From: Candidatus Altiarchaeales archaeon
Lineage (GTDB): Archaea > Altiarchaeota > Altiarchaeia > IMC4 > SCGC-AAA252-I15
Assembly (NCBI GenBank): GCA_014727915.1
Contig: WJMO01000004.1
Coordinates: 1-64,000, forward strand
Direction: 5' to 3'
Length of the DNA: 64,000 bases
The notes under the pieces are model-generated. The model ran no database searches, had not been told where the DNA came from, and saw only the letters and a program-made list of their open reading frames with translations. Shown here in pieces: positions 6,503-32,827 of this stretch. The first letter of the stretch is position 1. Each line of letters starts with the position of its first letter. A program made the translations under genes and the position numbers.

Positions 6503-6700
6503 CACAATTTCATCCGGTCTACTAGGTAGTATGTGATGTCTGACTCTTCATCGACGATGGCATAGATCATGTCGTCGCAGTTTCGCGACGGGAAATGTGC
6601 GTTTCGGGCGTTCCGCCCTCAAGCGCACTCACAATTTCATCCGGTCTACTAGGTAGTATGTGATGTCTGACTCTTCATCGACGATGGCATAGATCATGTC
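6503..6700. repeat. Perfect 71-bp direct repeat (6503-6573 and 6630-6700) of the endA 3' end, separated by a 56-bp hairpin-rich filler
   Basis: cacaatttcatccggtctact...catagatcatgtc read twice; filler has stems gtcgc/gcgac, gtgcg/cgcac and gggcg/cgccc. Confidence 0.95.
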
Positions 6701-7141
6701 CTTGTTGACGGTCTTCGCTAGCCTTAGTGCCCTGGCCATGTCGGGGAAGCTGCACGTGTACTCCTCAGGGACCACGTGCACCAAGTATTTGCTGTGTCCT
6801 TTCCCCAGTTTTATCCCTCGGTCGTATAGTCGGAAGTCCGTGCCGAACTTCAAACCGCTCCGCACCAGCATTCCACGCTCTCTGAGGTCTTTGTAGACGA
6901 GGTATTTGTTGTAGAACTCCTTCTCCTTCCTGCTGCCCTCCTTCACCAAGTCTTCGAACTCGAGGGCTTTCTTCCCCTTGAAGACCTCGAGCTTCCCCGT
7001 GTCCGCGAGGTAGACTGCTTCGATCAGCGAGAGCGCCAAGGCCTTTCCCTCGGATTCGCCGAATCCCCGGTCCTTCAGCTGGCTCTTCAAATCCGAGTCC
7101 CCCACCAGCACCTTCGTCCCGGACAGTATGCCAGCACACAT
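6629..7141 (-). CDS. endA: tRNA-intron (splicing) endonuclease, single catalytic unit
   Basis: LSLIEA.YL, VYKDLRERG..V.SGLKFGTDFRLY, GHS, K and AIVDEE.DITYY motifs; about 170 aa. Confidence 0.95.
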   Translation of the reverse strand: MCAGILSGTKVLVGDSDLKSQLKDRGFGESEGKALALSLIEAVYLADTGKLEVFKGKKALEFEDLVKEGSRKEKEFYNKYLVYKDLRERGMLVRSGLKFGTDFRLYDRGIKLGKGHSKYLVHVVPEEYTCSFPDMARALRLAKTVNKDMIYAIVDEESDITYYLVDRMKL

Positions 7142-7295
7142 AGTAGAATATATTACACCCCCCACTCTATTATAACCTAAATGCGCGGATGAATGAGGGA
7201 CCTAATATCCTAATATTCTGCGATGGGGGCGTCTTTCTCTGAGCTCCCGCTTAAATTCAGTGTAGTTGGGCTGCCGCCGCCCTCTTACACGCTCC

Positions 7296-8066
7296 TCAGA
7301 TATTTCCCCCGCCGCTTTCGATCAGGTCTTTTCTAACGAGCTTCCTGTTCACTTCATCCATGTTATGGAAGCCCGACCCTTCCCCGTACCGTTCCCGTAT
7401 GGAATGGTCTATCTGTGTCAGCAGGGTGGAGAACAGCGTTCCCGCCCGGCTTTGAGCCATGAAGTCCACCTTGTACAACTCCATGTTCGCAGGCTCATCC
7501 ATAAGAGGTCTTCTTGACTTCTCAAGACAGTATATGCCTGTTATGTTGTTGTCATCTCCCACGCACACGCCCCAGGCCGAACTCCAAAGGTTGCTTACGA
7601 CCGGCACGAACCTCATGCCATCGCTTACTCCCTTCTCGTCTATTATCGGGCTCACGTCACCATGTTCTTTCTGGACGTCTGCATCCCTCTCAACGGCGAG
7701 GTCGTACATCAGACTTCCCGCGGTCTCCTCGATGCTACCCGTCAGGTATCTTGCAGGGTTTCTGAGAAGCTGATGTACTGCTTCACCCCTGACCTTCAAC
7801 GATCCGATGAAGTTCTCTGGTTTGCATTTCATCCTCAATCCCATGACCTCTCCGCTGACCCCATCCGAGTCGAATAGGCCGGCGATTTCAGTGTAGTGGC
7901 GTTTGTCCCCCGCCTCATGGACGACCTTCCTCGGGTTTTCGGATCTTAAGAGTTTCTTCCTGTCCTCGTCTTCCATGCCGCCGACCTCCCCAGGGGGTAT
8001 GTTGTCCAATCCCAGATAGGTAACATGAAACGGTGGTTTCTCCCGCTTCTTCTTGGCTATAACCAT
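7296..8066 (-). CDS. Orphan hypothetical protein
   Basis: 256-aa ORF divergent from kae1; basic N-terminus; no recognised motif. Confidence 0.6.
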   Translation of the reverse strand: MVIAKKKREKPPFHVTYLGLDNIPPGEVGGMEDEDRKKLLRSENPRKVVHEAGDKRHYTEIAGLFDSDGVSGEVMGLRMKCKPENFIGSLKVRGEAVHQLLRNPARYLTGSIEETAGSLMYDLAVERDADVQKEHGDVSPIIDEKGVSDGMRFVPVVSNLWSSAWGVCVGDDNNITGIYCLEKSRRPLMDEPANMELYKVDFMAQSRAGTLFSTLLTQIDHSIRERYGEGSGFHNMDEVNRKLVRKDLIESGGGNI

Positions 8067-8106
8067 GTTATCCAGTTAAAAACTGGGAAGTCCTTCTTTT
8101 TATCCG

Positions 8107-9081
8107 ATGATAGTCCTGGGTTTGGAGGGTACGGCCCACACATTGGGTGTTGGGGTAATCGATGGTGATTTCAACGTCCTAGCCGATGTGAGGAACTCTT
8201 ACACACCAGAGGACGGGGGCATACACCCCCGGGACGCCTCTCAGCATATGAGTTCGGTGATGCGGGAATCCCTGGACCAGGCGTTAGATGAAGCTGCTAT
8301 AACCATATCGGATGTTGGCCTGGTGTCCTTCAGCCAGGGCCCAGGCTTGGGACCATGCCTCAGGACTGTGGCAACAGCAGCCAGGACGCTCGCCCTATAC
8401 AATAAGAAGCCTTTGTTGGGCGTCAACCACTGCATCGCCCACATCGAAGTCGGCAAAGTCCTCAGTGGATTCACAGACCCCCTGGTCCTCTATGTGTCGG
8501 GTGCGAACAGCCAGGTAATCAAACTCAGGGATGGGCGTTACAGGGTGTTCGGAGAGACCTTGGATGTTGGCTTGGGGAACATGCTGGATAAGTTCGGGCG
8601 GATGGTCGGCCTACAACATCCTGCAGGCCCGAAGATAGAGGAGCTCGCGCGGGAGGGCAGTGATTATATCGAACTACCCTATGTTGTTAAGGGGACCGAC
8701 ATGAGCTTCAGCGGCATATTGACCGCAGCCTATCAGAAGCACGAGTCCGGCGCAAGGCTGGAGGACATCTGCCACAGCCTTCAAGAAACTTCTTTTGCCA
8801 TGTTGTGCGAGGTGACCGAACGTGCGTTGGCCCACTTGAAGGCAGGGGAGGTGTTGCTCGCCGGCGGCGTCGGATACAACAAGCGACTTCAGCAGATGGC
8901 GAGTCTTGTTGCGGAAGAGCATGGCGCATCATTCGACTACCCGGGGAAGTTCATGGGAGACCAGGGTGTCATGATAGCGATGACCGCGTTGAAGATGCAC
9001 GACGCAGGTGTGACCATGACAGTTGAGGATTCGGTTGTGGATTCCAGCCAGCGGACCGACAGCATAGACGTTACCTGGTAG
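8107..9081 (+). CDS. kae1: tRNA N6-threonylcarbamoyltransferase Kae1 (stand-alone, no Bud32 fusion)
   Basis: LGLEGTAH, GGIHP, GPGLGPCL, VNHCIAH, GETLD, GGV..N, QRTD. Confidence 0.97.
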   Translation: MIVLGLEGTAHTLGVGVIDGDFNVLADVRNSYTPEDGGIHPRDASQHMSSVMRESLDQALDEAAITISDVGLVSFSQGPGLGPCLRTVATAARTLALYNKKPLLGVNHCIAHIEVGKVLSGFTDPLVLYVSGANSQVIKLRDGRYRVFGETLDVGLGNMLDKFGRMVGLQHPAGPKIEELAREGSDYIELPYVVKGTDMSFSGILTAAYQKHESGARLEDICHSLQETSFAMLCEVTERALAHLKAGEVLLAGGVGYNKRLQQMASLVAEEHGASFDYPGKFMGDQGVMIAMTALKMHDAGVTMTVEDSVVDSSQRTDSIDVTW

Positions 9082-9117
9082 ATGCGTGTTTATTCTTTTA
9101 CCTCCTATTTATATTTG

Positions 9118-10050
9118 ATGCATTCCAAGCGGAAGAAACCTGTGCATCTGACGTTCAAAGCCCATGTTGACGGTGAAACGTTCAGGTCCCAACCTCTCGC
9201 GGACGATGTGAAGACTTTTGTGTTGGAGGATGCGTCTGGCCGCGAGTTGAACGAGCAGGTTGAGATACTGCATGATAGGAGCACGACCTATTCCTCCGGC
9301 GCGAAAGAATTTGTCGATGAAGCCAGAGCCGCGGGCAAGGAGGTCGTTGCGGGTGAGACGTTTCGAAGCCCCGGGGATAGGGAATTGTATGAGCGGCTAT
9401 CCAAGTCCTCGAATGAGGCTATGAAGGCTGCTTGGATTAACCCGGTGGCTGACTGCATAAGGGATTACTTCGTGAAAAGAGCCGAGTGGGATGCCTTCAG
9501 GCACAAGCTTATCAGACAGACCATCGGTTCAGCATCAAAGGAGGGCCCCCTTGAGGCCCAGTACGGGACCGGGCATTCAACGCTGTCGGCTGAATTATCC
9601 GCTGTCGGCATTGACTCATCGAGGGATATGGGCCCCCTCGTTTTTCCCCATGACACCTGCATCATAAGGAAGCTAGTACGTGGGAAAGATCCGATGGAGA
9701 TATCCGACAGAGAATATAAGGCAGGCTTCGTCTCCATGATTATGCCTGATGACTGGGCGTCTCTCGCCTTTTGCGGGAAGAGTTTGGACGTTCGAACAGA
9801 CAGTGATTCACGTTTTGAGATTCTCGTGCGACACGCTTTGGTGGACCGGCTGACCGAGCAGCAGCTGGATGAGGTTCTGTGGAGGGATGATTTCAAACTG
9901 GTAATGACGTTCAACGGCTTGCCCAATCCACTGGATAGAACGCCCACGCCAGAGGAGGTGCGGGATTTTCTGGACAGGAACTCCAGGGAGAGGCCGAAGA
10001 GCGTGACAGGCATTTTCTGGAAGCGGTTGAGAGGCTCTTCAAGGGTTTAG
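9118..10050 (+). CDS. Hypothetical protein, possibly TraB/ChaN/EreA (TIKI)-like fold
   Basis: Spaced H (FKAH), E (FVLE), R and G.GH (YGTGH) residues; start moved to ATG 9118. Confidence 0.5.
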   Translation: MHSKRKKPVHLTFKAHVDGETFRSQPLADDVKTFVLEDASGRELNEQVEILHDRSTTYSSGAKEFVDEARAAGKEVVAGETFRSPGDRELYERLSKSSNEAMKAAWINPVADCIRDYFVKRAEWDAFRHKLIRQTIGSASKEGPLEAQYGTGHSTLSAELSAVGIDSSRDMGPLVFPHDTCIIRKLVRGKDPMEISDREYKAGFVSMIMPDDWASLAFCGKSLDVRTDSDSRFEILVRHALVDRLTEQQLDEVLWRDDFKLVMTFNGLPNPLDRTPTPEEVRDFLDRNSRERPKSVTGIFWKRLRGSSRV

Positions 10051-10084
10051 GCGTATTTAAGCGCCTGGTCTCCTATTTTCTACG

Positions 10085-10669
10085 ATGTCTGAAAAGCACC
10101 AGAAGCCGAAGAAACTTTTATCCTTGTTGGTCTTGTCTGTTCTTTCATACTCTATTGTAGCCGCGTCCACGGAGTCAGGTTTCACACGCATCAAAGCGGA
10201 CAGGAGCTGCTATGCCATAACGCCCTTTGGCGGCTTTAAGGCCACGTTCAAGAACACCGGCGGCTACCCGATATACCTGAAGACGTCGGAGATCACGGTC
10301 ATGGATGGTTCCTCTCCGAGGGCTCCCACGTGGAAGTGCGAAAACATGCAATCCTCGGCCGAGGTTGTGAATCCTGGGAAATACTTTGAGCTGTCCGCGT
10401 CCGGTTGTGGCGGTGGCTCCCTGGGGGACCCCTATTCAGCATACATAGTCATACCCTACTATGTCGTCATACGGGGCATACAATCAGACTATGCTGACGG
10501 GGGCATACTCACTGGTTCTCTGGAGGGGTTGCCTGAGATGGAGCAGAGGTGCGAGGGATCCAAGGTTCTAAGGAACATAGGATACCCCCTTCTGGCGTTG
10601 TTCTTGGTAGTGCTCCTATTCTCAGTGGCTCGTTACATGAAAAGGGAAGGCGTTGAGGGCAGTATTTAA
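10085..10669 (+). CDS. Secreted protein with pilin-like beta domain and C-terminal TM anchor
   Basis: Signal peptide; GFTRIK...F.N.GG..I...C...F...A.GC..G..GD.Y; C-terminal TM. Confidence 0.7.
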   Translation: MSEKHQKPKKLLSLLVLSVLSYSIVAASTESGFTRIKADRSCYAITPFGGFKATFKNTGGYPIYLKTSEITVMDGSSPRAPTWKCENMQSSAEVVNPGKYFELSASGCGGGSLGDPYSAYIVIPYYVVIRGIQSDYADGGILTGSLEGLPEMEQRCEGSKVLRNIGYPLLALFLVVLLFSVARYMKREGVEGSI

Positions 10670-10706
10670 GCGCTGACACCAGAGTAATTCTTGTTTCATA
10701 AAAAAA

Positions 10707-12617
10707 ATGGAGGAAGGAGACAGCAAGCCAGAGGAGGAGGCTCATCCCACCTTGGACGTTGAGGGCATGGACTCCTGGAATGCATTCAAGACCACTGACG
10801 AGATAAAGGTCCCCACGGTGTTGATAGAGCAGGTAATAGGCCAGGAGAAGGCGGTTGGCATAATCCGGAAGGCCGCCCGCCAGAGGCGTCATATACTCCT
10901 GATAGGGGATCCAGGGACTGGTAAGAGCATGTTGGCCAACGCCATGGCGGAATTGCTTCCCTCAGAGATGTTGGAGGACATAGTCTCCCTCCCTAACCCA
11001 GATGACGAGAACAACCCCAAGATCAAGGTCGTTCACGGTGGTGAGGGTCGTAAGCTGGTTAAGGCGGAGCGTGAGAAGGAGGCTGAGTCCAAGCATGGTG
11101 GCTTCAATGTAATGCCGTTCGTCCTGTTGCTCATAGTTTCCGCGATCATCCTTCACATCACAGGCTTGATCGAGGGCATAGTCTCCGCGGCGTTGATAGG
11201 CTTCGCATTCCTGGTCTTCCTGCTGTTCGGCGTGAACATACGGTTCATGATGGGCGGGCAGAAGAGCATGGCACCACGTGTGATAGTGGACAACAACGAC
11301 CGTGACATGGCGCCGTTCTATGATGGGACGGGAGCCCATGCGGGAGCCCTATTGGGCGACATAAAGCACGACCCGCTACAATCAGGCGGGCTTGGAACCC
11401 CAGCCCACCTAAGGGTTGTGGCGGGTTTGATACACAAGGCCAACAAGGGAGTTCTGTTCATCGACGAGGTTGGGACGTTGGGGAACAGCCAACTCGACCT
11501 GTTGACGGCCATCCAGGAGAAGCAGCTTCCGATAACCGGCCGGAGCGAGATGAGCTCAGGGGCTATGGTGATGACCGACCCGGTACCTTGTGACTTCATA
11601 CTGGTCGCGTCGGGTAACATACAGGTTATAGACCATATGCACCCGGCGTTGAGGTCGAGGATTCGCGGCTACGGGTATGAGATCTTCATGAAGGAGATGA
11701 TTGAGGACAACGACGAGAACCGGAAGAAGATGGTGCAGTTCGTAGCCCAGGAGGTGAAAAAGGACGGTAAGATACCCCACTTCACCGTCGAGGCTGTGGA
11801 GGAGATCATAAGGGAGGCCAAGCGGAGGGCTGGCACCAGGGACAAGCTGACCTTGAAGTTCCGGGAGCTGGGCGGTCTCATACGGGCTGCGGGGGACATT
11901 GCCAACGAGAATAAGCACAAGTATGTCAGTGCAGATGACGTTCTTGAGGGCAAGAAGAGCGCTAAGACGCTGGAGCAGCAGGTGGGAGACTACTTCCTTG
12001 AGCGCAAGAAGGAATATAACATACTAATAACCGAGGGCGACAAGATCGGTCGTGTTAACGGTTTGGCTGTCATGGGCGACGGAGGGACGGTATTGCCCAT
12101 TGTGGCGGAGGTCGCTCCAGCCCACAGCCAGAAGAGCGGGCAGATCATAGCAACCGGGAAGCTAGGGGAGATAGCCAAGGAGGCTGTTACCAACGTTTCA
12201 GCTTTGATAAAGAAGATATCCGGCAAGGACATAAGCAACCACGACATACACATACAGTTCCTCCAGACCTACGAGGGTGTTGAGGGCGATAGCGCGTCCG
12301 TCAGCGTTGCGGTCGCGGTGATGTCCGCGCTCGTCAAGGTCGGAGTGCGGCAGGATGTCGCCATGACAGGTTCGCTCACGGTCCGCGGCGAGGTCCTCCC
12401 CGTTGGAGGCGTCACGCAGAAGATAGAGGCCGCGATAGAAGCAGGGTTAAAGAGGGTCGTGATACCTGAGAGCAACATGAAGGACGTCCTATTGGAAAAG
12501 CGCTATGAGGGGAAGATAGAGATCGTCCCAGCCAAGAACATAGTCGACGTGCTCAAGCACTCGCTGGAAAAAGGCAAGGTTCTGGTTGACAAGGCAGACA
12601 AGCTATTCGACAAATAA
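10707..12617 (+). CDS. lonB: ATP-dependent protease LonB
   Basis: Walker A GDPGTGKS, two-TM insert, LFIDE, EGDSAS catalytic Ser, VGGVTQK catalytic Lys. Confidence 0.97.
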   Translation: MEEGDSKPEEEAHPTLDVEGMDSWNAFKTTDEIKVPTVLIEQVIGQEKAVGIIRKAARQRRHILLIGDPGTGKSMLANAMAELLPSEMLEDIVSLPNPDDENNPKIKVVHGGEGRKLVKAEREKEAESKHGGFNVMPFVLLLIVSAIILHITGLIEGIVSAALIGFAFLVFLLFGVNIRFMMGGQKSMAPRVIVDNNDRDMAPFYDGTGAHAGALLGDIKHDPLQSGGLGTPAHLRVVAGLIHKANKGVLFIDEVGTLGNSQLDLLTAIQEKQLPITGRSEMSSGAMVMTDPVPCDFILVASGNIQVIDHMHPALRSRIRGYGYEIFMKEMIEDNDENRKKMVQFVAQEVKKDGKIPHFTVEAVEEIIREAKRRAGTRDKLTLKFRELGGLIRAAGDIANENKHKYVSADDVLEGKKSAKTLEQQVGDYFLERKKEYNILITEGDKIGRVNGLAVMGDGGTVLPIVAEVAPAHSQKSGQIIATGKLGEIAKEAVTNVSALIKKISGKDISNHDIHIQFLQTYEGVEGDSASVSVAVAVMSALVKVGVRQDVAMTGSLTVRGEVLPVGGVTQKIEAAIEAGLKRVVIPESNMKDVLLEKRYEGKIEIVPAKNIVDVLKHSLEKGKVLVDKADKLFDK

Positions 12618-12687
12618 AAAAATACTTTTCCACTGCACTCTACTCTCTGTATTTAATAAACATATTACTATAAGGTAAGGCTTTAAA

Positions 12688-13629
12688 ATGGACATAGAAG
12701 AACTTCCCGGCGTGGGCGCCACTATAGCGGAGAAGCTGCGGGAGGCCGGATACGACTCTGTCGAGGCGATAGCCGCCGCAGCCACAGCCGAGCTCAAGGA
12801 CGTGGGCGTGGGAGACGCCACGGCGGTCAAGATAATCGCAGCAGCACGGGAATCCCTGAAGATGGGATTCGAGACGGGACTGGATGTCCTGGCCAAAAGG
12901 GACCTGGTGGATAAGATCTCAACGGGCAGCAAGGAATTCGACATACTTTTCGGAGGCGGCATAGAGACCCAGGCGATAACCGAGTTCTTCGGAAAGTTCG
13001 GCTCTGGCAAGACCCAGGTCGCGCACCAGCTGGCTGTGAACGTGCAGCTTCCCAAGGACAAGGGGGGCGCTGAAGCGGGTGCCATATACATCGACACGGA
13101 GAACACCTTCCGCCCTGAGCGTATCCAGCAGATGGCCAAGGCAGCCAACCTGGACCCTGAAGAGGCCCTGTCCAACATAATGGTTGCGAGGGCCTACAAC
13201 TCCGACCACCAGATGCTCCTCGCCGAGAAGGCATCCGAGATAGTCAAGGAGAAGAAAATCAAGCTGGTCGTCGTGGACTCCCTGACAGCGCATTTCCGGG
13301 CCGAGTACACGGGCAGGGGCACATTGGCCTCAAGGCAGCAGAAGCTCAACAGGCACATGCACACCCTCCAAAGGAAGATAGCAGACCTGCATAACGTGGC
13401 TGTCATAGTCACGAACCAGGTCATGTCGCGCCCGGACATAATGTTCGGCGACCCGACCGCACCCATCGGCGGCCACATTGTAGGCCACCACAGTACATTC
13501 CGCGTTTACCTCAAGAAGGGCAAGGGGTCCAAGAGAATCGCCTCATTGATAGACTCCCCTAACATGCCCGATGGCGAGTGCATCTTCGAGGTCGTGACTG
13601 ACGGAATAACTGACGCTAAAGCCAAGTGA
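12688..13629 (+). CDS. radA: DNA repair and recombination protein RadA
   Basis: HhH N-terminus, [28 protein letters not shown]. Confidence 0.98.
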
Positions 13630-14807
13630 TTAAGATGAGGAACATCTATGTTGAGTTCCCCAACGAGAGACCGCTCGATAAACAGGATGTCGAGCTGGTT
13701 GAGCGTAAGGGGATAGGGCATCCAGACAGTATATGTGACGGCCTAGCCGAGGGTGTTAGCCGCGCGCTTTCCCAAGAGTATGTTAAGCGTTTCGGCCATA
13801 TATTGCACCATAACACAGACCAGGTCGAGTTGGTTGGAGGGCGTAGCACTCCCGAATGGGGTGCTGGCGAGATCGACACGCCCATGTACATCCTCCTTTC
13901 CGGCCGTGCGACGACGCAGGTGGGAGACGATGTCATCCCCGTGGGCGAGATAGCCATCGAGGCAGCCAGGAAGTATCTGAAGGAAAATTTCAGGAACATT
14001 GACGTTGACACTTCCGTCATCTTGGACCAGAAGATAGGCATGGGGTCTTCTGACCTCAGGTCGGTGTTCGGCAGGAAGGGCATCCCCAAGGCGAATGACA
14101 CCTCCTTTGGTGTTAGCTTCGCTCCTTTCTCCCTGACGGAGCAGCTCACATATGAGGTTGAGCGTTACATGAATGGCACCATGAAGAAGAAGGTCAAGGC
14201 TTCCGGCGAGGACATCAAGGTCATGGGGGAGCGCTACAAGGACGAGATAATCTTGACCATATGCAATGGCATGGTCTCGAAGCATATCAAGAACATCGGC
14301 GACTACAAGGCCATTATTGAGGAGATGACGGGCCTTGTCAGGGATTTTGTCGCGGGAATAACCGACAAGGACGTAAGGATTGAGATCAACACAGGCGACG
14401 ACATTGACAACCAGAGCGTCTTCCTTACCGTGAGCGGCACCAGTGCCGAGATGGGAGATGACGGCTCGGTTGGAAGGGGTAACCGGGCTAATGGCCTTAT
14501 CACCCCTTATCGTCCTATGAGCTTGGAGGCCACTGCCGGTAAGAACCCTGTGAACCACGTTGGCAAACTGTACAACCTGTTGTCCAAGGAGATCGCGTGC
14601 GAGATCGCGTGCGAGGGCGCTGACCAGGTCTATGTGCGTTTGCTGAGTCAGATCGGGCACCCGATCGATCAGCCTTTGTGTGCGGATGTTCAGGTAGTCG
14701 GCCCTATGAAGCTGGAGAAGCGTGCGGTGGAGATAACGGACTACTGGCTTGAGAACATCCAGGAGATGACCGAGAAGTGTTTGAAGGGCAAGGCGGAGAC
14801 ATTCTAG
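13626..14807 (+). CDS. mat: Archaeal S-adenosylmethionine synthetase
   Basis: [47 protein letters not shown]. Confidence 0.97.
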
Positions 14808-14843
14808 TCTTTTTTATTTCTCCCCTCCCATTCTCTTTTTATC

Positions 14844-15284
14844 ATGTATGAGTCTCTCCAGCCGGAGTTGGGGATGTTGTTGCGTGTTTTTTTCGCTTCT
14901 CTGTTAGGTTTTATGATAGGCATTGAGAGGCGTGGTGGTCCCCGTGGCGCAGGTCCCAGGACGTTCTCCCTTATCTGTCTGGGTTCTGCGTTTTTCAGTG
15001 TTTTGGCTGTTGTTTCCTTTCCTGCTGAAACTGCTACCGCCAGGGTTGTTGGGCAGATCGTCACTGGTGTTGGTTTCATAGGTGCGGGCGTCATTTGGAG
15101 GCAGGAGGGTGATATACTGCATGGTATCACGACTGCCGCTGCCATCTGGGTTTCTGCCGCGGTTGGTTTGTCTGTTGGTTTGGGCTATTTTGTTGTGGCC
15201 TTTTTTGTTGCTGTGATGGCTATGTTCATCTTGGCGAGGGGTCATCCTATCGAGGAGGCCAAGAAGCACATATGCACAGAATAA
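14844..15284 (+). CDS. MgtC/SapB family membrane protein
   Basis: IGIER...AG.RTF, QIVTGVGFIGAGVI, GITTAAAIW. Confidence 0.92.
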   Translation: MYESLQPELGMLLRVFFASLLGFMIGIERRGGPRGAGPRTFSLICLGSAFFSVLAVVSFPAETATARVVGQIVTGVGFIGAGVIWRQEGDILHGITTAAAIWVSAAVGLSVGLGYFVVAFFVAVMAMFILARGHPIEEAKKHICTE

Positions 15285-21394: not shown

Positions 21395-21480
21395 TTTCAC
21401 TTTCAAACGCGTTAACCGCTTTTATAGCCGTTTTCAAAGTATTATACTCCAAAATCTGAGGATAAATTTGGTGTGTTAGA

Positions 21481-23439
<1,959 letters not shown>

Positions 23440-23556
23440 GAAACTCCCCCGTTTATCCGGGATATAGCAGATGCCTATCTTCTGCTCTATTAGGATAATA
23501 GCCACACTTTAAAGTGTGGTTATTTATCTTCTTTTTCTTCTTTATCTTATCTGAAC

Positions 23557-24366: not shown

Positions 24367-24415
24367 TATGGAGAAATTTAAAACTATTTAAACAAAAACC
24401 GTAATAGCTTAAAAA

Positions 24416-24514
24416 ATGAAGAATCCGTTCTGGGAGATATGGGCTGGCATCATAATGGCAGTGCTCATGCTACTCCTGATATCCTTCTACATGAACCGGC
24501 TCTCACTGCCCTGA
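24416..24514 (+). CDS. Unannotated 32-aa single-TM peptide
   Basis: MKNPFWEIWAGIIMAVLMLLLISFYMNRLSLP*; TATA-like tatttaaa about 25-30 bp upstream. Confidence 0.55.
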   Translation: MKNPFWEIWAGIIMAVLMLLLISFYMNRLSLP

Positions 24515-25558: not shown

Positions 25559-25615
25559 GACAGTAAAGGGATAGGGAGCAGGGGATATTATCTGTGATTG
25601 TAGGATGATGAGAAG

Positions 25616-25722
25616 TAGCGGGGGGTGGATTTTCAAGGCTTCAGGGCGCACCTAACGCCATTTTGAACCACCGGCCTTCGGGTTATGAGCCCGACGAGCA
25701 CTCCTGACTGCTCAACCCCGCT
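25616..25722 (-). tRNA. Initiator tRNA-Met (CAT) with a 32-nt intron in the T-loop (59/60; 25630-25661)
   Basis: A1-U72 acceptor AGCGGGG/CCCCGCT; anticodon arm TCGGG-CTCATAA-CCCGA; T stem GGTGG/CCACC with a 39-nt loop that reduces to TTCAAAT. Confidence 0.92.
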
Positions 25723-25746
25723 GTTTTAGTCTTATGTCGTTTCTGG

Positions 25747-25753
25747 TATATAA
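25747..25753 (-). promoter_or_regulatory. TATA box for tRNA-iMet
   Basis: TTATATA about 25 nt upstream of the tRNA 5' end. Confidence 0.55.
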
Positions 25754-25806
25754 GGGGTGTTCTAGGGTGTTTTTATAGCATTGTTACCTTATATTTCGGG
25801 TACACG

Positions 25807-25962
25807 ATGGCTAAGTTCAAGGAGGCTGAGGCGCGTTTGTTCAAGGGGGTTTGCATGCACTGCAACTCGAAGAACCCGTTGAAAGCCAGCAAATGCCGCA
25901 AATGCGGGAAAGTCGATAAGATAAGGCGTAAGAGGCGTAAGAAGACCGCCACTGCCGGATAG
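25807..25962 (+). CDS. rpl40e: 50S ribosomal protein L40e (missing from ORF track)
   Basis: [51 protein letters not shown]. Confidence 0.93.
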
Positions 25963-25999
25963 AACCGCATAATAAAGTCTGCTTCTAATTCTGTACATC

Positions 26000-26455
26000 A
26001 TGGAAGAGGAGGGCATAGGCTCCAGCTTGCATTTCTACTGGGAGATACTCATCGTGTTCGCGGCTTTGGTCAGCGTTGTCTCCCTGTTGGTCGAGTTTAC
26101 CATTCACTTGGACGAGGAGATCGAGCATGCCCTCCATCTCATAGACTATGTTGCGCTTTCTCTGTTCGGTGTGGACATATTATTGAAGTACCGGATATAC
26201 AGGCATCACTCACGTGATAGGTTGCAGTTCTTGAAGGCCAACTGGCTTGACATACTGGCGGTTATACCCTTGTTCAGGATATTCCGGATGTCCCGGTTCG
26301 CGAGGTTGAGCAGGCTGGTTAAGATGCGGAAGAGCGCCAGGGCACTGTCTCGGGTCGAAGAGGTCACTGTTGGCGTGGAGAAGGTTAATAAGGGGGTGTC
26401 CGGCGTGGCTCACGGACATCATATAACGGACGCAGCTGAAAATCTGAGGAAGTGA
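26000..26455 (+). CDS. Stand-alone voltage-sensor (S1-S4) domain protein without pore
   Basis: S2 D...F..D, S3 NWLDILA.IP, S4 FRIFRMSRFARLSRLVK; no S5-P-S6 or GYG. Confidence 0.8.
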   Translation: MEEEGIGSSLHFYWEILIVFAALVSVVSLLVEFTIHLDEEIEHALHLIDYVALSLFGVDILLKYRIYRHHSRDRLQFLKANWLDILAVIPLFRIFRMSRFARLSRLVKMRKSARALSRVEEVTVGVEKVNKGVSGVAHGHHITDAAENLRK

Positions 26456-26460
26456 GGTTT

Positions 26461-27636
26461 TCACCCTCCGAATATCCTGCTGCTGAGCCTCATGTATACG
26501 TAGTTGAACAATAGGAAGAACAGGATCGAAACTATTATGGCTATCACTCCGAAGGACATGAGCTCCTGGACCTTGAATGACACCAGTTTGCCATGGGCGA
26601 TCAGCGACCCTTCGGGGGAGTATAGTGTGAGTTCGGCGCCTGGCATCGCCCCTAACGCGATTATAGAGGAAATCACGCCAACAAGGAATATGGCCTGTAG
26701 AAGCTTCATCTCCTTCTCCTCCTTCTGGGTTTCGATGGATGTCTGCATCCCCAGCCTCGTGTTTACTATGAAGTTGAGGTTCTCCAGGTCCGTTATCAGC
26801 ACGTCCCTCCATAGTGGTATTATGTAGTCGGAGTCCCTGTAGAGCCGTTGGAAGTTGCCTTTCACGTCCAGAGCTTTCGCCAGTTCCTCCTGGTCTCTGG
26901 TTTTTCCCATCTCATCGTAGATCTCATGGGTGTGTTTGAAGTTGGAGACCGCCTGCTTCAGCTTCCCGTATCTCTCGCTGCATCGCTTCCTCAATGCTGC
27001 TATGGATATCATGGTTTCCCGTATGTCCTTGAAGTCCTCCTCTTCGAGTATTCCCTCGACGTCGACCATGTCGTTGTATACTTTGGACATGGTCTCGACC
27101 ATGGTGTTCACGTAGTTGCTCCCTAATACGGTGTACAGTAGGAACTCTATCATCCTCATGCCATCTTCCGTAACGGACCCGTTCACGTAGATGTTGGATT
27201 TTGTGGAGTATAGTCTTGGCATGTCAAAGTAGACCTTGACCTCTGAGGCCTCGACGGACTGAAGTCCCATTGGCACTCCGCCGTCGAATACTGTGGCGTG
27301 GAACCCTATTGGCAGTATGCCGTCCTTTATCTGCTGGTATGTGACGGCCTGGGCTGGTTTGAATATGTCCTCTATGAGCAGTTCTCTGACTTCCTTCTTG
27401 AATTCTAGTATTTTCTCTGCCGTCACTTCCTTGAATTCGGATTTGAAGGTGAACAGGCCATATGGGAGTATCTTGGCCTCTATCTCCCTCCCACTTCTGC
27501 TCTTGACGTTGAATGACAGGCCTCCGTTGACTGTTAGGTCGTATACCTCAAGGCCTATGGATTCCTGTTTCCCGGCTATTTCATAGACGTGAGTGTCAGA
27601 CCGCGGTATCCACGTTGAAACGACTATGGCGGGCAT
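26461..27636 (-). CDS. Divergent CorA-like membrane protein
   Basis: Large soluble domain, long helical stalk and two C-terminal TMs; GMN absent (GAM). Confidence 0.5.
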   Translation of the reverse strand: MPAIVVSTWIPRSDTHVYEIAGKQESIGLEVYDLTVNGGLSFNVKSRSGREIEAKILPYGLFTFKSEFKEVTAEKILEFKKEVRELLIEDIFKPAQAVTYQQIKDGILPIGFHATVFDGGVPMGLQSVEASEVKVYFDMPRLYSTKSNIYVNGSVTEDGMRMIEFLLYTVLGSNYVNTMVETMSKVYNDMVDVEGILEEEDFKDIRETMISIAALRKRCSERYGKLKQAVSNFKHTHEIYDEMGKTRDQEELAKALDVKGNFQRLYRDSDYIIPLWRDVLITDLENLNFIVNTRLGMQTSIETQKEEKEMKLLQAIFLVGVISSIIALGAMPGAELTLYSPEGSLIAHGKLVSFKVQELMSFGVIAIIVSILFFLLFNYVYMRLSSRIFGG

Positions 27637-27755
27637 TTTACCCTTAGAAATTGTCCTTCCTCCTATAAATCATTGGGGGCGCTGTAGTGTTCACTAGTAC
27701 TATGCTCTAACACATTGTTTTTTATTGTTGTCTGTCATTTTTTCATTCTAATCAG

Positions 27756-28133
27756 GTGGTGCGGTTGTCTGACAATACCTTATACCTAGCTTTTGCGGTT
27801 TCATTGGCTGGCTTGCTTTTGATAGCATTCATATCCCCCTCCGTCAACCCTCCCATGTCCTCAATATCTGAGATATCATCATCTTCCTTGGAGAAGAGGG
27901 TGAGGGTTTCCGGGTTGGTGTCCGACGTTCACAGGTTCGATGGTGGGAGCATGCTCTTGACGGTGGAGGATGATGGCGGTGAGATCGACGTTTATCTCAG
28001 CTACTCTGTCGCTGGGGAATTCGAAGACTTTGACTTGGAAGGATGCGAGGCGGAGTTCACAGGAGATGTGAAGCTTTACAGGGGCAGGTTGGAGGTTGTT
28101 GTCGATATGCCGGAGGATGTGGTGTTAAAGTGA
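27756..28133 (+). CDS. Membrane-anchored OB-fold protein
   Basis: N-terminal TM; V.VSG.V, L.VED..G.I.V, G.V..YRG.LE.V. Confidence 0.8.
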   Translation: MVRLSDNTLYLAFAVSLAGLLLIAFISPSVNPPMSSISEISSSSLEKRVRVSGLVSDVHRFDGGSMLLTVEDDGGEIDVYLSYSVAGEFEDFDLEGCEAEFTGDVKLYRGRLEVVVDMPEDVVLK

Positions 28134-28909
28134 TCTCCGTTTCCGACCTTAGCGGTTTCATCTACTGTCCCCGCTCTGTCTATCTTTCACGTGTTTTGGG
28201 CGTGGTCCCTCCCGGCTCTGACCCCCAGGGGAGGGGTATGGTCGGCCATGCCATCCGACGCGAGCTGTCCATGAGGCAGGCCAAGCTGGTACGCAAGATC
28301 GACTCGTCTGAAGACGTGGAGACCATCCTCAACTCCGAACTCGAGGCTGTTATCTCGGACATACCCTACATATTCTCAGAACGATGGGTCGAAGGCTATT
28401 CCAAGTTCATACCTGAGGTCAGGTCGGAGGTCCAGTCCGAGATTCAGCTGTTGGGGGAGGAATTGTCCGCTCTCATATCGGACCTTGGTTTTGAGCGTGC
28501 GTTGGAGCGTGTTACCCCCTGGAAGACGGAGTACATCCTACGCTCTGAAGCTCTGAACATGAAGGGCAGGGTTGACAAGGTGATGCGCGCCGATTGCTTT
28601 GAGCCTGTTGAGATAAAGACTGGCAGGGTCCCAGACGGTGTGTGGGATGGTGACAGGGTGCAGCTGTGCGCCTATGCCCTGCTGTTGGAGGAGAGGTTCA
28701 AGGAGGGGGTCAGCCATGGCTTTGTCGAGTACACGCGGGTACAGGAGCGTCGGCCGGTGGTGTTCACGGAGAAGCTGCGCCGGCAGGTCATCCACGCAAG
28801 GGACTTGCTGTCTGAACTCTTGGATGGGGGGTTGCCCGACATATGCCCACATGGACAGCCTAGGAAGTGCGAGTCATGCAATCTGGTCGATGAATGCTAT
28901 GAGGTCTAG
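28130..28909 (+). CDS. cas4: Solo Cas4-family PD-(D/E)XK nuclease
   Basis: YCPR, G..GH, GRVD, EIKTG, QL.AY, C-terminal KC..C.....C; GTG start overlaps upstream TGA. Confidence 0.88.
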   Translation: MISVSDLSGFIYCPRSVYLSRVLGVVPPGSDPQGRGMVGHAIRRELSMRQAKLVRKIDSSEDVETILNSELEAVISDIPYIFSERWVEGYSKFIPEVRSEVQSEIQLLGEELSALISDLGFERALERVTPWKTEYILRSEALNMKGRVDKVMRADCFEPVEIKTGRVPDGVWDGDRVQLCAYALLLEERFKEGVSHGFVEYTRVQERRPVVFTEKLRRQVIHARDLLSELLDGGLPDICPHGQPRKCESCNLVDECYEV

Positions 28910-29097
28910 TCCTTCTTGTGTTTCACAACCCGTGTGATGTATCCCGCGATCTTGTTCCTTATGCTCTTGCTGGTTATGTCCGTGTGCGATGCTACCTTCC
29001 TCTTGTTATCCTGGAAGTCTGCCGTGAAGACGTCAGGGTATTCCCTGAGCAGCTTCTCAGCGACCCTCTTCAGATACGTCTGTTTAATCCTACCCAT
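28906..29097 (-). CDS. rps17e: 30S ribosomal protein S17e
   Basis: MGRIKQ..LKR...DF..NK...SK.IRNKIAGYIT. Confidence 0.97.
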   Translation of the reverse strand: MGRIKQTYLKRVAEKLLREYPDVFTADFQDNKRKVASHTDITSKSIRNKIAGYITRVVKHKKD

Positions 29098-29134
29098 TGT
29101 CCAACTAAATAGGCAGTGGTTGTTTAAAAAACCA

Positions 29135-29989
29135 TCATCTCAGCAGGTCAGCCCAGGTGAGCTTCCTCTCAGGCTTCCTTACGCCCGGCTCGCCTTTTAT
29201 GCCGCCCAGTTCGCCGGCTACGGCTATGGCGTGGTCTATGCCGCCAAGCTCGTCTATGAGGCCGTTCTCCTTTGCTTCAACGCCCAGGTAGATGCTGCCC
29301 TGGGCGACGGATTCGACCTCCTCTACGGTCATGTCCCGGTTCTCAGCCACGTCTGAGACGAAGCTGTCGTATACTATGTCTATTATCCGCTGCATCTCAG
29401 CTTCCTCGTCTTCGGTCATGGGCCTGAAGGGGCTGCCGATGTCCTTGCTCTTCCCGGCTTTTATGACCGTGACGTTTACTCCGATCTCGTCTAACAGCTC
29501 ATAGTAGTGTTGTATGAACGTTACCACGCCGATGCTGCCTGTGATGCTGTTCTCGTCGGCCACTATCCTGTCGGAGGCGGATGCCGCGTAGTATGCCCCG
29601 GACGCTCCTACCTCCCCGATCCAGGCGACAACAGGTTTTTTCGTGTTCCTGACGGCTCTCATAAGCTCCCTGGAGGCTACCACGTTCCCGCCGCCGCTGT
29701 ACACGTCCAAGACGATCGCCTTTACCGTGGGGTCCTTGTCTGCGTCCCTTAGCTGCTTTTTGATGGTGTCCACCTGGGCGCAGCTTTCCATGTACAACAG
29801 GCTGCCGGGGCAGCTGCCCATGGTTATGGTGCCGTGGATTGGTATTACAGCCACGTCCCCGCCGGTTCCAAGTTCCGGGACGTTGAATCCGCTGAGCAGG
29901 GCTGCTATGCTGAATGCCACCACCATAACGAAAAGCCCCAACACCGCGAAAGTCACCACAACCTTCCAGAATGTCTTCATAAAAACCAA
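29135..29989 (-). CDS. sppA: Signal peptide peptidase SppA (S49)
   Basis: SGGG, ASGAYY.AS, TGSIGV, K.G..K, GLIDELG. Confidence 0.93.
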   Translation of the reverse strand: MVFMKTFWKVVVTFAVLGLFVMVVAFSIAALLSGFNVPELGTGGDVAVIPIHGTITMGSCPGSLLYMESCAQVDTIKKQLRDADKDPTVKAIVLDVYSGGGNVVASRELMRAVRNTKKPVVAWIGEVGASGAYYAASASDRIVADENSITGSIGVVTFIQHYYELLDEIGVNVTVIKAGKSKDIGSPFRPMTEDEEAEMQRIIDIVYDSFVSDVAENRDMTVEEVESVAQGSIYLGVEAKENGLIDELGGIDHAIAVAGELGGIKGEPGVRKPERKLTWADLLR

Positions 29990-30030
29990 GCCTCGTGTAG
30001 GGTATACTATAAAACTGAGCTATAAAAGCC

Positions 30031-31653
30031 TTAGTATGGGTTTGGAAGGGCGGTGAACTGGTGCAGTTCCCTCGTGTTGTTCTTATCGCCTGTTGGCGTG
30101 TATTCGTACAGCCATGTGACGTTATCCTCTGTCCCTGGGGCCTTGATGGTTCCCTTGAATGTTAGGGGGGCTGTTTCTATGGGCTGGTTGACGAATGTGA
30201 CCAGCACCTTTTTGCTTTTGTCCATCATGTAGTCGCAGGTGAAGCCGAAGGAGTTGATGTTGTGGGCGTCGCAGGTCTTGAATTTTCCAAGACCGTTCTC
30301 CTGGTATTTCCCCGGGTCGAAACCTGAAACAAATGAGAATATGACGTTGTTGATCGGCGCGATCACGACCTCATCGTATGTTCCGGCGTTCTCGTATGCG
30401 TATGTGGCCGCCCTCTCAAGGCCGTATCTCTCATACTCCTGTGGTTGCATTTTGTAGTAGACTGTGGGGAATGGGAGCATGTTCAGAGCGAACAGCCCAA
30501 GTACCGCATATGCCATTGTATTTGCGTGTTTGTGTTTCTTTATCCTGTCCATGAATGATGTTATCCCGTAGGCCGTGATTATCTGAAGAACGAAAACGGA
30601 TTCCACATAACGTTGAATGTGGGTTGCGTATTCTAGGAGGCTTGCTGGTATGGGCGAGATGAGAAGCCAGAATAGGAGATACTTAATTTCCTTGTCCTCT
30701 CGCCTCTCCCCTAGCATTATGTACAGGCCGAATATTATGAACGGAAGTTGCATGTGGTAAAGTCGCCCATAGGGTGATATGGGCGTTCTACCCCACTTGT
30801 CCTTTTTGTCTATGAATAGGGTGTCCGTCATATATGTGAGGTAGTTGCGGCCCATGCTGCCTATCTTGGCTATGGCGTTCATGTCTCCACCCTGGACTCT
30901 CACCTCATTGTACCTTGCCAATACCATGTCTTTGGATGTTAGGATGGAATATGCCATCGGAGCGGTCAACAATGCGAACACTAGCAATGCTGTTGCGGTC
31001 TCCTTTTTGAATATCTCCTTTCCCCTGGTCTTGTGCAGTAGGATGAACCCCATGAACAACAGCACGGACGTTATCACCATCTTTAGATGGAAGTAGACGC
31101 TTATTCCGAAAACTGCGCCCGCCAATATGAGGTGCCTGTCGTTGTCGAGGCTTTTATAGCAGAAGTATACGCCCAACAGCGTGAGGAATGTATAGTAGCC
31201 TACCTCGTAGGCTTGGGTGCTTATCACAAGATGCCATGGTGAAAAGGCGAGCAGTATCGAGCTTGCCACAGCCGTCCTACGGTCGAATATCCTCTTCACA
31301 AGCAGATATAGTATCGGGATTGCTGCCGAACCTAGAAGTGCGACTGTGATTCTGAGGCCGAACTTGCTCGGGCCGAACAGCGCGATTCCCGGTATGGTGG
31401 CGTACACGCTTAGTCCTGGCCTGTTCTCTCCGCTCCCCCTGAAAAAGACTGGTGTCCGGATGCCAGTTGTGTCCTTTCCCGTCCTTAGTATCGAATATGC
31501 CTCGTATCCTATGAAGGCTTCGTCACCTGTGATGGCGTGGATCGAACCAAGCCCGTATAACCTCATAAGGAGGGATATTAGGATGATCACGCCGATTATG
31601 CGGGTCTCATGTCTTTCTATGAAGTCTCGCCTGCTTTTTACCCTCTTCCCCAT
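30031..31653 (-). CDS. GT-C fold (PMT/ArnT-like) polyprenyl-phosphate-sugar glycosyltransferase
   Basis: R.YGL...DEA...Y.AYSI..TG.D, multi-TM, SPWH; start moved to 31653. Confidence 0.85.
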   Translation of the reverse strand: MGKRVKSRRDFIERHETRIIGVIILISLLMRLYGLGSIHAITGDEAFIGYEAYSILRTGKDTTGIRTPVFFRGSGENRPGLSVYATIPGIALFGPSKFGLRITVALLGSAAIPILYLLVKRIFDRRTAVASSILLAFSPWHLVISTQAYEVGYYTFLTLLGVYFCYKSLDNDRHLILAGAVFGISVYFHLKMVITSVLLFMGFILLHKTRGKEIFKKETATALLVFALLTAPMAYSILTSKDMVLARYNEVRVQGGDMNAIAKIGSMGRNYLTYMTDTLFIDKKDKWGRTPISPYGRLYHMQLPFIIFGLYIMLGERREDKEIKYLLFWLLISPIPASLLEYATHIQRYVESVFVLQIITAYGITSFMDRIKKHKHANTMAYAVLGLFALNMLPFPTVYYKMQPQEYERYGLERAATYAYENAGTYDEVVIAPINNVIFSFVSGFDPGKYQENGLGKFKTCDAHNINSFGFTCDYMMDKSKKVLVTFVNQPIETAPLTFKGTIKAPGTEDNVTWLYEYTPTGDKNNTRELHQFTALPNPY

Positions 31654-31695
31654 AATAAACCACTTACCTTTATGATTATCTTGAATAGGATAAAT

Positions 31696-32532
31696 ATGCT
31701 TCAGATGATGGTGAAAGCAGGTCTCATGAGGTCGGCAATGGCGTTTCTCATTGTTTGCTCGCTTTTGGCTATCCCCTGTTCTGGGGCGTCTGAAGAGTAT
31801 GAACGCCACATAGCAAAGGGCAGGGCTTATCTTTCGGAGGGTTTGTTGGGTGAGTCGGAGAGCGAATTCTCAAAGGCCGTAATGCTTGACCCCATGGAAC
31901 CTACAGGATTAAACAACCTCGGCGTCGTATACTTGAAGCAGGAAAGGGTCTCTGAGGCTATTGACCTGTTCAACAGAGCCTTGCAGCTGGACCCTGGTTC
32001 AAAATCCATCAAGATGAACCTGGCGGCAGCCTATGAGAGCTCTGGGGATGAGTCGAACTTTCTGAGGATAATGGGCAGTATCGAGGATCCTGACGTCCAC
32101 TATGGCTTGGGCAGATCCTTTGCCGAAAAAAAGGACCATGACCGGGCATATTCGGAGCTGTCAGCCGCTTTGGAATTGGACCCAAACCATTATGATTCCC
32201 TTAAGCTGTTGTCAATATTGCTCTATGAGAATGGCTCATATGATAAGGCAATACTCGTATCTAAACGGGTCTTGGAGATAAACCCACGGCACATCTATTC
32301 GATGATTTTGGCCGGTGACTCATACTTGGAGCTTGGTGAATATGAGAAAGCATCCGACTACTACAATGCCGCACTTAGAGCAAATCCTGGCTATGAGCTT
32401 GCCAAGTCAAAAATCAAAATAGCGAAAGGCGACGTCGAACACGAGAATCGTGAGAGGGCAGGTTATGCTATCTTCTACCTTTCATTGGCAGCTGGTGCTG
32501 GACTGGCGTACTTCCTTCATAAGACCGAGTGA
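31696..32532 (+). CDS. Secreted TPR-repeat protein with C-terminal TM anchor
   Basis: Signal peptide, about six TPR units (NNLG..Y, A..LDP), C-terminal hydrophobic helix. Confidence 0.85.
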   Translation: MLQMMVKAGLMRSAMAFLIVCSLLAIPCSGASEEYERHIAKGRAYLSEGLLGESESEFSKAVMLDPMEPTGLNNLGVVYLKQERVSEAIDLFNRALQLDPGSKSIKMNLAAAYESSGDESNFLRIMGSIEDPDVHYGLGRSFAEKKDHDRAYSELSAALELDPNHYDSLKLLSILLYENGSYDKAILVSKRVLEINPRHIYSMILAGDSYLELGEYEKASDYYNAALRANPGYELAKSKIKIAKGDVEHENRERAGYAIFYLSLAAGAGLAYFLHKTE

Positions 32533-32549
32533 TAAAGAGGGGTTTTTTG

Positions 32550-32563
32550 GCGGCCGTCGGGAT
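32550..32563 (-). repeat. 14-bp copy of the tRNA-Gly 3' end
   Basis: gcggccgtcgggat identical to 32632-32645. Confidence 0.75.
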
Positions 32564-32630
32564 CCCGCAACTCTTCGAGTTGCTTAATCCCGTCGGTTTT
32601 CGACATGTGTCTGCTGTCGATGTGCTCTGA

Positions 32631-32704
32631 TGCGGCCGTCGGGATTCGAACCCGAGTCGCAAGATTGGCAACCTCGAGTGATAACCAGGCTACACTACGG
32701 CCGC
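32631..32704 (-). tRNA. tRNA-Gly (GCC)
   Basis: GCGGCCGTAGTGTAGCCTGGTTATCACTCGAGGTTGCCAATCTTGCGACTCGGGTTCGAATCCCGACGGCCGCA folds as a cloverleaf. Confidence 0.93.
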
Positions 32705-32808
32705 GTTTGTAAGATTATCCGCCCGTGATTTGGGTTTCATGTTTTTTCTGTGGTATCGAGCGAACGGAGTGATCGAAGATGGCACCTTAGTCGCCGGCTA
32801 ACTCCGAC

Positions 32809-32827
32809 CTACACTACGGTCGCGTTT
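32809..32827 (-). repeat. 19-bp copy (1 mismatch) of the tRNA-Gly 5' end plus leader
   Basis: ctacactacggtcgcgttt vs ctacactacggccgcgttt at 32690-32708. Confidence 0.75.

Follow-up and report, generated by a model that had tools for sequence, protein, structure and literature searches.

Hairpin-headed modules between duplicated gene ends in an Altiarchaeales genome: a probable family of mobile micro-elements at tRNA and protein genes

What process leaves a short, hairpin-rich sequence between two copies of the end of a gene, and why should it have done so repeatedly within a single stretch of archaeal DNA? The question is raised by the first 64 kb of contig C11 (64,000 nucleotides, hereafter the window) of a Candidatus Altiarchaeales archaeon, the genome of which (G000) is a 1.81-Mb assembly in 13 contigs that is 90.6% complete. 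A sequence-only reading of the window had pointed to three sites with the layout segment, filler, copy of the segment, one at the 3′ end of the endA gene and one at either end of a tRNA-Gly gene, and to a hairpin inserted into the T-loop of the initiator tRNA-Met (iMet). Here, we argue that the four sites are insertions of one family of small structured mobile modules, brought in by the mechanism outlined below, a reading to which, taken jointly, we assign a probability of about 0.55; that a real family of mobile micro-elements lies behind the four sites is, on its own, highly probable.

Direct comparison of the repeats confirmed all three sites, and both GAA-looped GC stems noticed earlier are indeed found on the minus strand. 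At endA, a perfect 71-nt repeat (6503–6573 and 6630–6700) encloses a filler of 56 nt. The open reading frame (ORF) at 6629–7165 on the minus strand (178 aa) encodes the tRNA-intron endonuclease EndA (matches to PF01974 and PF02778), and the repeat corresponds to its final 23 codons plus the TG of the stop codon. The copy at 6630–6700 (minus strand) forms the working 3′ end of the gene, and that at 6503–6573 (minus strand) is a spare, partial one in which the stop codon is lost (TGG). The element copy between them, at 6574–6629, reads on the plus strand, antisense to endA, with its head hairpin (6574–6589) next to the spare copy, followed by a linker (6590–6596) and a second hairpin (6597–6628); its last base gives the A of the endA stop codon. 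At the 3′ end of the tRNA-Gly gene, the repeat is perfect over 14 nt (32550–32563 and 32632–32645), with 68 nt of filler. The spare copy of the last 14 nt of the tRNA, from A59 of the T-loop to the base before the discriminator, lies at 32550–32563 (minus strand) and is followed by an element at 32564–32630 on the plus strand, antisense to the tRNA, in the order head hairpin (32567–32583), stretch complementary to the T-stem, second hairpin and tail, and then by the intact tRNA-Gly(GCC) at 32631–32704 (minus strand).

At the 5′ end of the same gene, the 19-nt repeat carries one mismatch (32690–32708 and 32809–32827). The repeat and the intervening 100 nt stand as described earlier, but 32705–32740 (minus strand) is the native promoter region, outside the element, rather than filler: in the genomes G001, of the same genus as G000, and G004, a homologous stretch lies directly upstream of tRNA-Gly and the duplicated segment extends into promoter DNA (about 45 nt upstream of the tRNA), so that the repeats can evidently take in such DNA. 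For the same reason, we dropped the notion that the duplicated segment represents the 5′ end of a transcript, from its start to a break. The element proper, a member of alignment A1 (below), occupies 32741–32808 on the minus strand, sense to tRNA-Gly, with the head hairpin at 32793–32808 and a partly decayed second hairpin; the spare copy at 32809–32827 (minus strand) comprises 4 leader nucleotides and tRNA-Gly positions 1–15, with G4 changed to A. The fourth site is the iMet gene (25616–25722, minus strand), the T-loop of which is interrupted. The hairpin insert is real, the repeat that bounds it being 8 nt long and not only the AAAAT originally noted: the copies TTCAAAAT and TTGAAAAT (first T-loop copy 25660–25667, second copy 25629–25636) flank a 23-nt filler starting with a hairpin (25637–25659).

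The fillers had been described as dissimilar in primary sequence, a statement that did not survive comparison with the rest of the genome and with relatives. Judged by their sequences and predicted folds, the fillers of the window sites are one family with a common plan: the head hairpin is conserved in sequence, a linker rich in purines follows, then comes a second hairpin of which only the structure is conserved, and the tail is variable. Further head types in the data conform to this plan as well. The module is non-coding, measures about 25–130 nt and is accompanied by a spare gene-end copy of 8–110 nt. A BLAST search with the tRNA-Gly region matched the 5′ filler, at 33 of 36 nt, to a stretch at C11:99192 on the same contig, which likewise lies between two 45-nt copies, in this case taken from a different tRNA and covering its leader and first 20 nt. 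The 19-nt head, GTCGGAGTT(A/T)GCCGACGAC, is present also at C3:498777, C3:440905 and C3:227381 and, with two mismatches, at hisF (C12:139295); these copies are enclosed by direct repeats of 73, 27, 14 and 38 nt (the last with 1 mismatch), respectively. All five matches to the head in G000 with at most one mismatch are flanked by direct repeats, and the hisF copy is a sixth. The endA filler carries a variant of the head, with a compensatory change from G–C to C–G in the head stem, and aligns end to end with copies of three other genomes (G015, G038 and G036) as well as with that at C3:498777. When the strand opposite to the tRNA is read, the fillers at tRNA 3′ ends, that of tRNA-Gly among them, display the head hairpin (often with tandem G·A in the stem), a short linker, the second hairpin and the tail, and add a stretch that co-varies with the tRNA and is complementary to the spare copy along its T-stem strand; this type also occurs at four or five other tRNA 3′ ends of G000 and at tRNA-Gly in relatives. 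The possibility that the variable part is a guide complementary to the target was considered and rejected, the tRNA-3′-end type alone being complementary (to the T-stem strand), with nothing convincing by eye for the GTCGG-headed type found at the tRNA-Gly 5′ end.

Conservation of structure is apparent from alignment A1, which holds 14 copies of one subfamily from six genomes. Its head is invariant and its second hairpin remains paired via changes on both sides in 8 of 15 pairs; 93.3% of the cells pair, compared to 80.9% in shuffled alignments (none of 500 shuffles reached the observed value), and slid partners give 15–50%. Measured against shuffled sequences, the endA filler and the tRNA-Gly 3′ filler have fold z-scores of −3.77 and −3.11, whereas the tRNA-Gly 5′ copy, with a z-score of +0.99, folds no better than shuffles because its second hairpin has decayed. 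None of the Rfam 15 covariance models matched the window fillers (E up to 1) or the sequences of 7 loci of relatives. In both alignments (A1 and A2), one end of the element, that of the head, is fixed and the opposite end is variable, with no inverted partner of the head, and the head is joined precisely to the repeat. Two loci of one relative (L053, G038:C103, 2126–2200, and L039, G038:C64, 2231–2305) contain an element copy split between head and linker by two further small hairpins, and composite arrays of several modules are found beside tRNA genes and, in G036 (L002), beside the RNase P RNA gene.

The layout is strongly enriched in the genome. A scan for exact direct repeats (at least 14 nt, with spacers of 25–200 nt) returned 101 repeats at 61 loci of G000, versus 0–2 in five Markov-2 simulated genomes. 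Eight of these loci are repetitive-gene arrays, several others are repeats inside proteins and about 20 are of the element type; the duplications in G000 measure 8, 14, 19, 27, 38, 45, 48, 49, 71 and 73 nt. As many as 13 of the 30 tRNA genes are affected, with a copy of the 5′ end (at least 11 nt) upstream of 10 and a copy of the 3′ end downstream of 7, and the corresponding wrong-side controls gave 0/30 and 1/30. The proposal of a recurrent process at tRNA-related loci is thus supported by the family, its enrichment and its recurrence, but the range of targets is broader and includes protein genes, that is, hisF, a SpoU-like methyltransferase gene and other ORF ends.

The insertions also obey rules. 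In about 40 cases that could be oriented, the spare copy adjoins the head, and the end of the intact gene adjoins the tail; therefore, the element is sense to its target at 5′ ends and antisense at 3′ ends. The one exceptional site is C3:440905, with its counterpart in G015 (L050). In all five ORF cases of G000, no more than 2 nt separate one repeat edge from the start or stop codon, and at both endA and C3:498777 the stop codon is completed by the last base of the element. The latter site might be taken for a 5′-end insertion, given an ATG in the repeat, a view that was abandoned when ORF mapping placed the repeat at the 3′ end of an ORF of 360 aa. At tRNA 3′ ends, the repeat spans T-loop positions 57–59 to the discriminator or a few nucleotides past it, and at tRNA 5′ ends the joint falls mostly at positions 12, 15 or 20.

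For comparison, we used 41 relatives, a phylum-wide set of 61 genomes (49 from within the order, 12 from outside) and sets of 30 loci each for endA, tRNA-Gly, iMet and hisF. Every genome compared is an incomplete assembly in which element junctions are known from assembled contigs alone, several counts rest on reading printed flanks by eye, and transcript starts were inferred from the sequence. With at most one mismatch, the 19-nt head occurs in 18 of the 41 relatives and in 21 of the 61 phylum genomes (20/49 in the order, 1/12 outside), at up to 11 copies per genome, and the reversed head, used as a control, gave no match in the same genomes; the phylum-wide spread was counted for this head only, the endA-type variant being known from the loci in the alignment. 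Among the heads of relatives, 17 of 36 have a flanking repeat by the criterion of the script and 9 more do so on reading of the printed flanks. A search for a virus or plasmid carrier gave no exact head match in viral contigs. In five genomes (G038, G017, G008, G001 and G005), several copies of the head are found no more than about 100 nt from a contig end, which suggests that the elements probably break metagenome assemblies.

Empty sites, a counterpart that had been called for, are found at endA, hisF and tRNA-Gly, and most relatives hold them. The endA 3′ end bears an insertion in 4 of 30 genomes (G000, G018, G017 and G020, the last with two, nested) and the endA 5′ end in one (G019), and no such copy was seen at endA in the other 25, including same-genus G001. 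At tRNA-Gly, the 3′ end is hit in 9/30 genomes and the 5′ end in 6/30; G001 has two nested 3′ insertions, the distal of which is orthologous to that of G000. The hisF insertion sits at the identical nucleotide in G000, G001, G012 and G027 (4/30) and is absent from 24 genomes, namely G002, of the same genus as G012, and 23 others. Within each genome, the two hisF copies are identical or nearly so (37/38, 38/38, 40/40 and 55/55), and between genomes they are several nucleotides apart; the second hairpin of the hisF element belongs to different subfamilies in G000 and G001, each matching other copies of its own genome. Such occupation of one junction by different subfamilies in sister genomes argues that preferred sites have been struck by new insertions time and again, and not that a single cassette was inherited. 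Upstream of hisF in a further genome (L117, G025:C64), a tandem duplication of about 38 nt covers the hisF start with no filler; this is either the same footprint in element-free form or what is left after loss of the element.

Where the two gene-end copies have diverged, their differences are informative. Eight pairs were available: endA in G017, G018 and G020 (two pairs), the methyltransferase gene in G015 and G019, and hisF in G000 and G026. In these, 32 of 39 differences are synonymous where a fraction of 0.23 is expected (P ~2e-14). By our own arithmetic, selection on the working copy alone would predict a synonymous share of about 0.38, and the observed share exceeds even this value, suggesting that a different functional allele was the source of some, at the least, of the spare copies and, hence, that element-bearing gene ends move between lineages.

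The iMet insert connects the family to tRNA introns. It follows the plan of the elements in miniature, with an 8-nt repeat and a hairpin-headed filler, and is confined to G000, that is, to 1 of the 30 iMet loci of the order; 14 loci are uninterrupted and 15, including that of same-genus G001, have an anticodon-loop intron. The UUCAA and UUGAA of the two repeat copies can pair to give, in succession, the T-stem, an AAU bulge, a helix of 5 bp (canonically 4), a further AAU bulge and an inner helix, a predicted fold that is close to the bulge–helix–bulge splice motif. Comparison across the order supports the view of the insert as a gain specific to G000 and a putative new intron. In addition, the module that forms the anticodon-loop intron of several G000 tRNAs also serves as filler between duplications at C3:209335 and at the tRNA-Gly of G023. 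Together, the iMet insert and this shared module lend support, at the level of sequence, to the earlier suggestion that the insertions could seed non-canonical tRNA introns. Archaeal tRNA introns and their transposition in Thermoproteales were reportedly addressed by Fujishima et al. in 2010. The resemblance to archaeal tRNA introns resides in the small hairpin modules, the D- and T-loop positions and, in the iMet insert, a helix with two 3-nt bulges. By contrast, most copies described here, including those at endA and tRNA-Gly, lie outside the mature RNA or product and need no splicing, the target is duplicated and protein genes are also hit. How introns arrive is left open in a 2026 preprint on the subject (10.64898/2026.10.13.758758).

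How might such modules move? The mechanism that we favour, tentatively and at clearly less than even odds, invokes a single strand with a copy of a gene end, pairing and protection of a flap. The moving unit would start at the head, run through the module and carry a copy of the neighbouring gene end. Through its gene-end part, this strand might pair with that gene, whether in its own cell or in a different one, and become incorporated as DNA is replicated or repaired, its free 5′ end being shielded from flap removal by the hairpin head; module and extra gene end would thus be ligated in. In the observed layout, the element adjoins an intact gene end on the outside, with the tail facing the gene and a spare terminal copy beyond the head, so that the interrupted end is rebuilt. 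Where the duplicated stretch falls short of the gene end, the gene would stay interrupted and survive only if the insert can be spliced, as may be the case in the iMet T-loop. Yeast rad27 (FEN1) mutants accumulate flap-mediated duplications, and hairpin flaps escape FEN1. Those duplications are of similar size (about 5–100 nt), and a 5′ hairpin would block flap removal in the same manner; however, they involve no conserved inserted module and are not targeted to gene ends, and the parallel models just one of the steps that we infer.

Several observations weigh against this reading. The single-stranded intermediate is inferred, none having been seen, and no mobilising enzyme was found in G000 among the families searched, although the assemblies are incomplete (90.6% for G000) and mobile genes often fail to assemble. 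The identical junctions occupied by different subfamilies in sister genomes (hisF and tRNA-Gly position 15) count on the same side, as do most of the repeat pairs, which are perfect (71/71, 73/73, 49/49, 48/48 and 45/45) and explained equally well by plain target duplication. As for exchange between lineages, the two G020 pairs in the count of synonymous differences are not mutually independent, and the test for incoming copies is weak: for G017, 3 of 3 comparisons place the spare copy nearer to relatives from its genus, and G020 shows no difference.

The alternatives differ in how the duplication arises. In one of them, which we regard as unlikely, a non-autonomous element moves by cut-and-paste or copy-and-paste, a transposase staggering its cut by 8–110 nt and fill-in duplicating the target, with selection leaving those insertions that fall at gene ends. 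Long, variable target duplications have a precedent in IS1634 of Mycoplasma, and the perfection of most repeat pairs, the different subfamilies at the same junction in sister genomes and the nested, repeated hits all fit this account. Yet, the G000 assembly gave no match to DDE_Tnp_1, Y1_Tnp (PF01797), the TnpB zinc-ribbon or Cas1 (PF01867), other transposase families not having been searched; the head alone is fixed and the elements lack inverted ends; and a staggered cut predicts neither the orientation of about 40 cases to 2, nor the repeat edges within 2 nt of start or stop codons, nor the 32 synonymous differences out of 39. Considerably less probable is an RNA-mediated route, in which excised, possibly circular intron-like RNAs would be reverse-transcribed and inserted in the manner of short interspersed nuclear elements (SINEs), by target-primed reverse transcription or template jumping. 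The modules do have the appearance of structured RNAs, covariation included, tRNA introns are another form taken by one of the module families, the insertion points cluster at D-loop positions 12, 15 and 20 and T-loop positions 57–59, and duplications of variable length are typical of target-primed reverse transcription. The RVT_1 domain, however, not found in G000, is present in 4 of the 41 relatives, none of which is element-rich (as are, for example, G019, G038, G015 and G008), and the promoter DNA within the duplicated segments of tRNA-Gly in G001 and G004 indicates that these are not simply transcript copies. The sequence-only reading had offered a route of the HUH/REP or reverse-transcription type, for which neither an HUH or RAYT gene nor a reverse transcriptase was found in the G000 assembly; template switching, which it also named, is possible.

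According to another account, slightly more improbable again, the repeats are attachment (att) sites and the fillers are leftovers from integrative elements that lost their body, comparable to the cis-mobilisable remnants of conjugative elements. The 3′ ends of tRNA genes are classic att sites, the synonymous-only differences resemble a replacement gene end borne by an element, and G000 has two tyrosine-recombinase genes, in open frames of about 400 aa, that immediately adjoin tRNA genes: C4:3382–3873 (minus) next to tRNA-Asp (C4:3008–3080), and C3:114464–114943 (minus) next to an intron-bearing tRNA (C3:113962–114135). These two loci are probably integrated elements. Nevertheless, an integrase has one att site, whereas a single head here serves more than 20 different targets, among them tRNA 5′ ends and ORF starts; the fillers are complete, conserved modules of 55–130 nt with covariation; no integrase was found beside the window sites; and no full-length integrase element was seen between the repeats at the 30 endA, 30 tRNA-Gly and 30 hisF loci. 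Coincidence or artefacts of a metagenome-assembled genome, finally, might be suspected of an assembly in 13 contigs, and several element copies in relatives lie at contig ends, but this account is barely credible given that the layout recurs at about 20 loci in G000 and in more than 20 other genomes, where the polarity is consistent, sequence is shared and the copies have diverged, none of which would be the work of an assembler.

The tested defining features of the known systems that come closest are absent from the family, be it MITEs (miniature inverted-repeat transposable elements), IS200 and repetitive extragenic palindromic (REP) elements, SINEs, diversity-generating retroelements, integration of the CRISPR type or integrative elements with att site and integrase. 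Integrative elements of the SSV and pNOB8 type in archaeal tRNA genes and e14 in icd of Escherichia coli rebuild the end of their target gene. They share with the present elements the intact gene end plus a displaced spare copy, differences that may be synonymous only, and a preference for tRNA 3′ ends, but the whole insert here is 55–250 nt long, lacks an integrase, uses one head for many targets, including 5′ ends, and may be nested or repeated. SINEs and target-primed reverse transcription resemble the family in small structured non-coding units, variable-length duplications, and one fixed and one variable end, and differ in that the element-rich genomes here have no reverse transcriptase and the duplications may take in promoter DNA. 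In REP sequences and bacterial interspersed mosaic elements with their REP-associated tyrosine transposases (RAYTs), as in IS200/IS605, recognition apparently depends, as in the present family, on a conserved hairpin close to one of the ends; those systems make no target duplication, whereas duplications flank nearly all of our copies, and no Y1/HUH gene was found. Diversity-generating retroelements can be set apart by the lack of an RVT_1 match in G000 and by repeats that are identical or differ at synonymous sites of all kinds, where those of the retroelements differ at adenines, and CRISPR- or casposon-type integration by the lack of a Cas1 match in the G000 assembly. MITEs, including the MITE-like elements of Pyrobaculum calidifontis (PMC6009581), are likewise small, non-coding, multi-copy, non-autonomous and flanked by a target duplication; the elements described here, however, lack terminal inverted repeats, have duplications that are variable (8–110 nt) rather than short and fixed, are strictly polar towards the gene end and have no matching transposase among the families searched. 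The same paper, on MITE-like small RNA elements of that organism, raises the circularisation and re-insertion of small archaeal RNAs, and PMC3218864 mentions integration into tRNA and discusses tRNA rearrangements; in the parts available, neither of these nor the study cited above on the arrival of introns (10.64898/2026.10.13.758758) treats the present layout. No description of such elements was found in the searchable literature on archaeal tRNA introns and mini-elements and on target duplications in DPANN archaea, subscription journals and supplements lying outside that search.

The tRNA genes of this genome and its relatives are unusual in other respects. Many tRNA genes of G000 have long or unusual introns, several of which contain a common module, CCC–T-rich hairpin–GTGTTTCATCCCC; the whole genome yields only 27 tRNA matches to Rfam, and ARAGORN, without the intron option, reports 16 tRNAs. 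Beyond the window on the same contig, an intron-bearing tRNA (C11:99288–99551) is called Arg(CCT) by ARAGORN, whereas its anticodon loop CTCCAGA would make it Trp(CCA), and the long intron of its counterpart in relatives contains motifs, GATGATGA and CTGA, that resemble C/D boxes. In two genomes of one genus (L076, G028:C87, and L077, G024:C5), the 3′ piece of tRNA-Gly(GCC), from the T-loop to the end, lies directly upstream of the 5′ piece, with outer flanks that are 10-nt perfect complements; the gene is apparently circularly permuted, and its layout appears to be the one expected of a permuted tRNA gene. Within the window, a perfect tandem repeat of the 12-nt GAGATCGCGTGC (two copies) is located at 14589–14612.

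Spare gene fragments, contig breaks and tRNAs with long leaders and trailers are among the consequences of the elements, which may also explain why tRNA genes are missed by finders in such genomes, as the low number of Rfam matches in an assembly that is 90.6% complete would suggest. Whether the family constitutes a new class of mobile DNA, namely, structured, intron-like units that are addressed by the gene-end copy they carry, find their place at that gene by pairing and have no transposase, integrase or reverse transcriptase to themselves, is a slightly more doubtful proposition than the mechanism itself; if this reading of the cargo as the address were true, DNA would have a novel means of reaching a target site. 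The origin of archaeal tRNA introns now becomes testable with sequence data and simple biochemistry, because a countable family inserts at intron-type D- and T-loop positions, leaves a footprint and appears to have made the putative T-loop intron of iMet. If the proposal is true, these elements would provide a missing route to archaeal tRNA introns and, by extension, to split and permuted tRNA genes, of which the iMet intron would be a fresh example.

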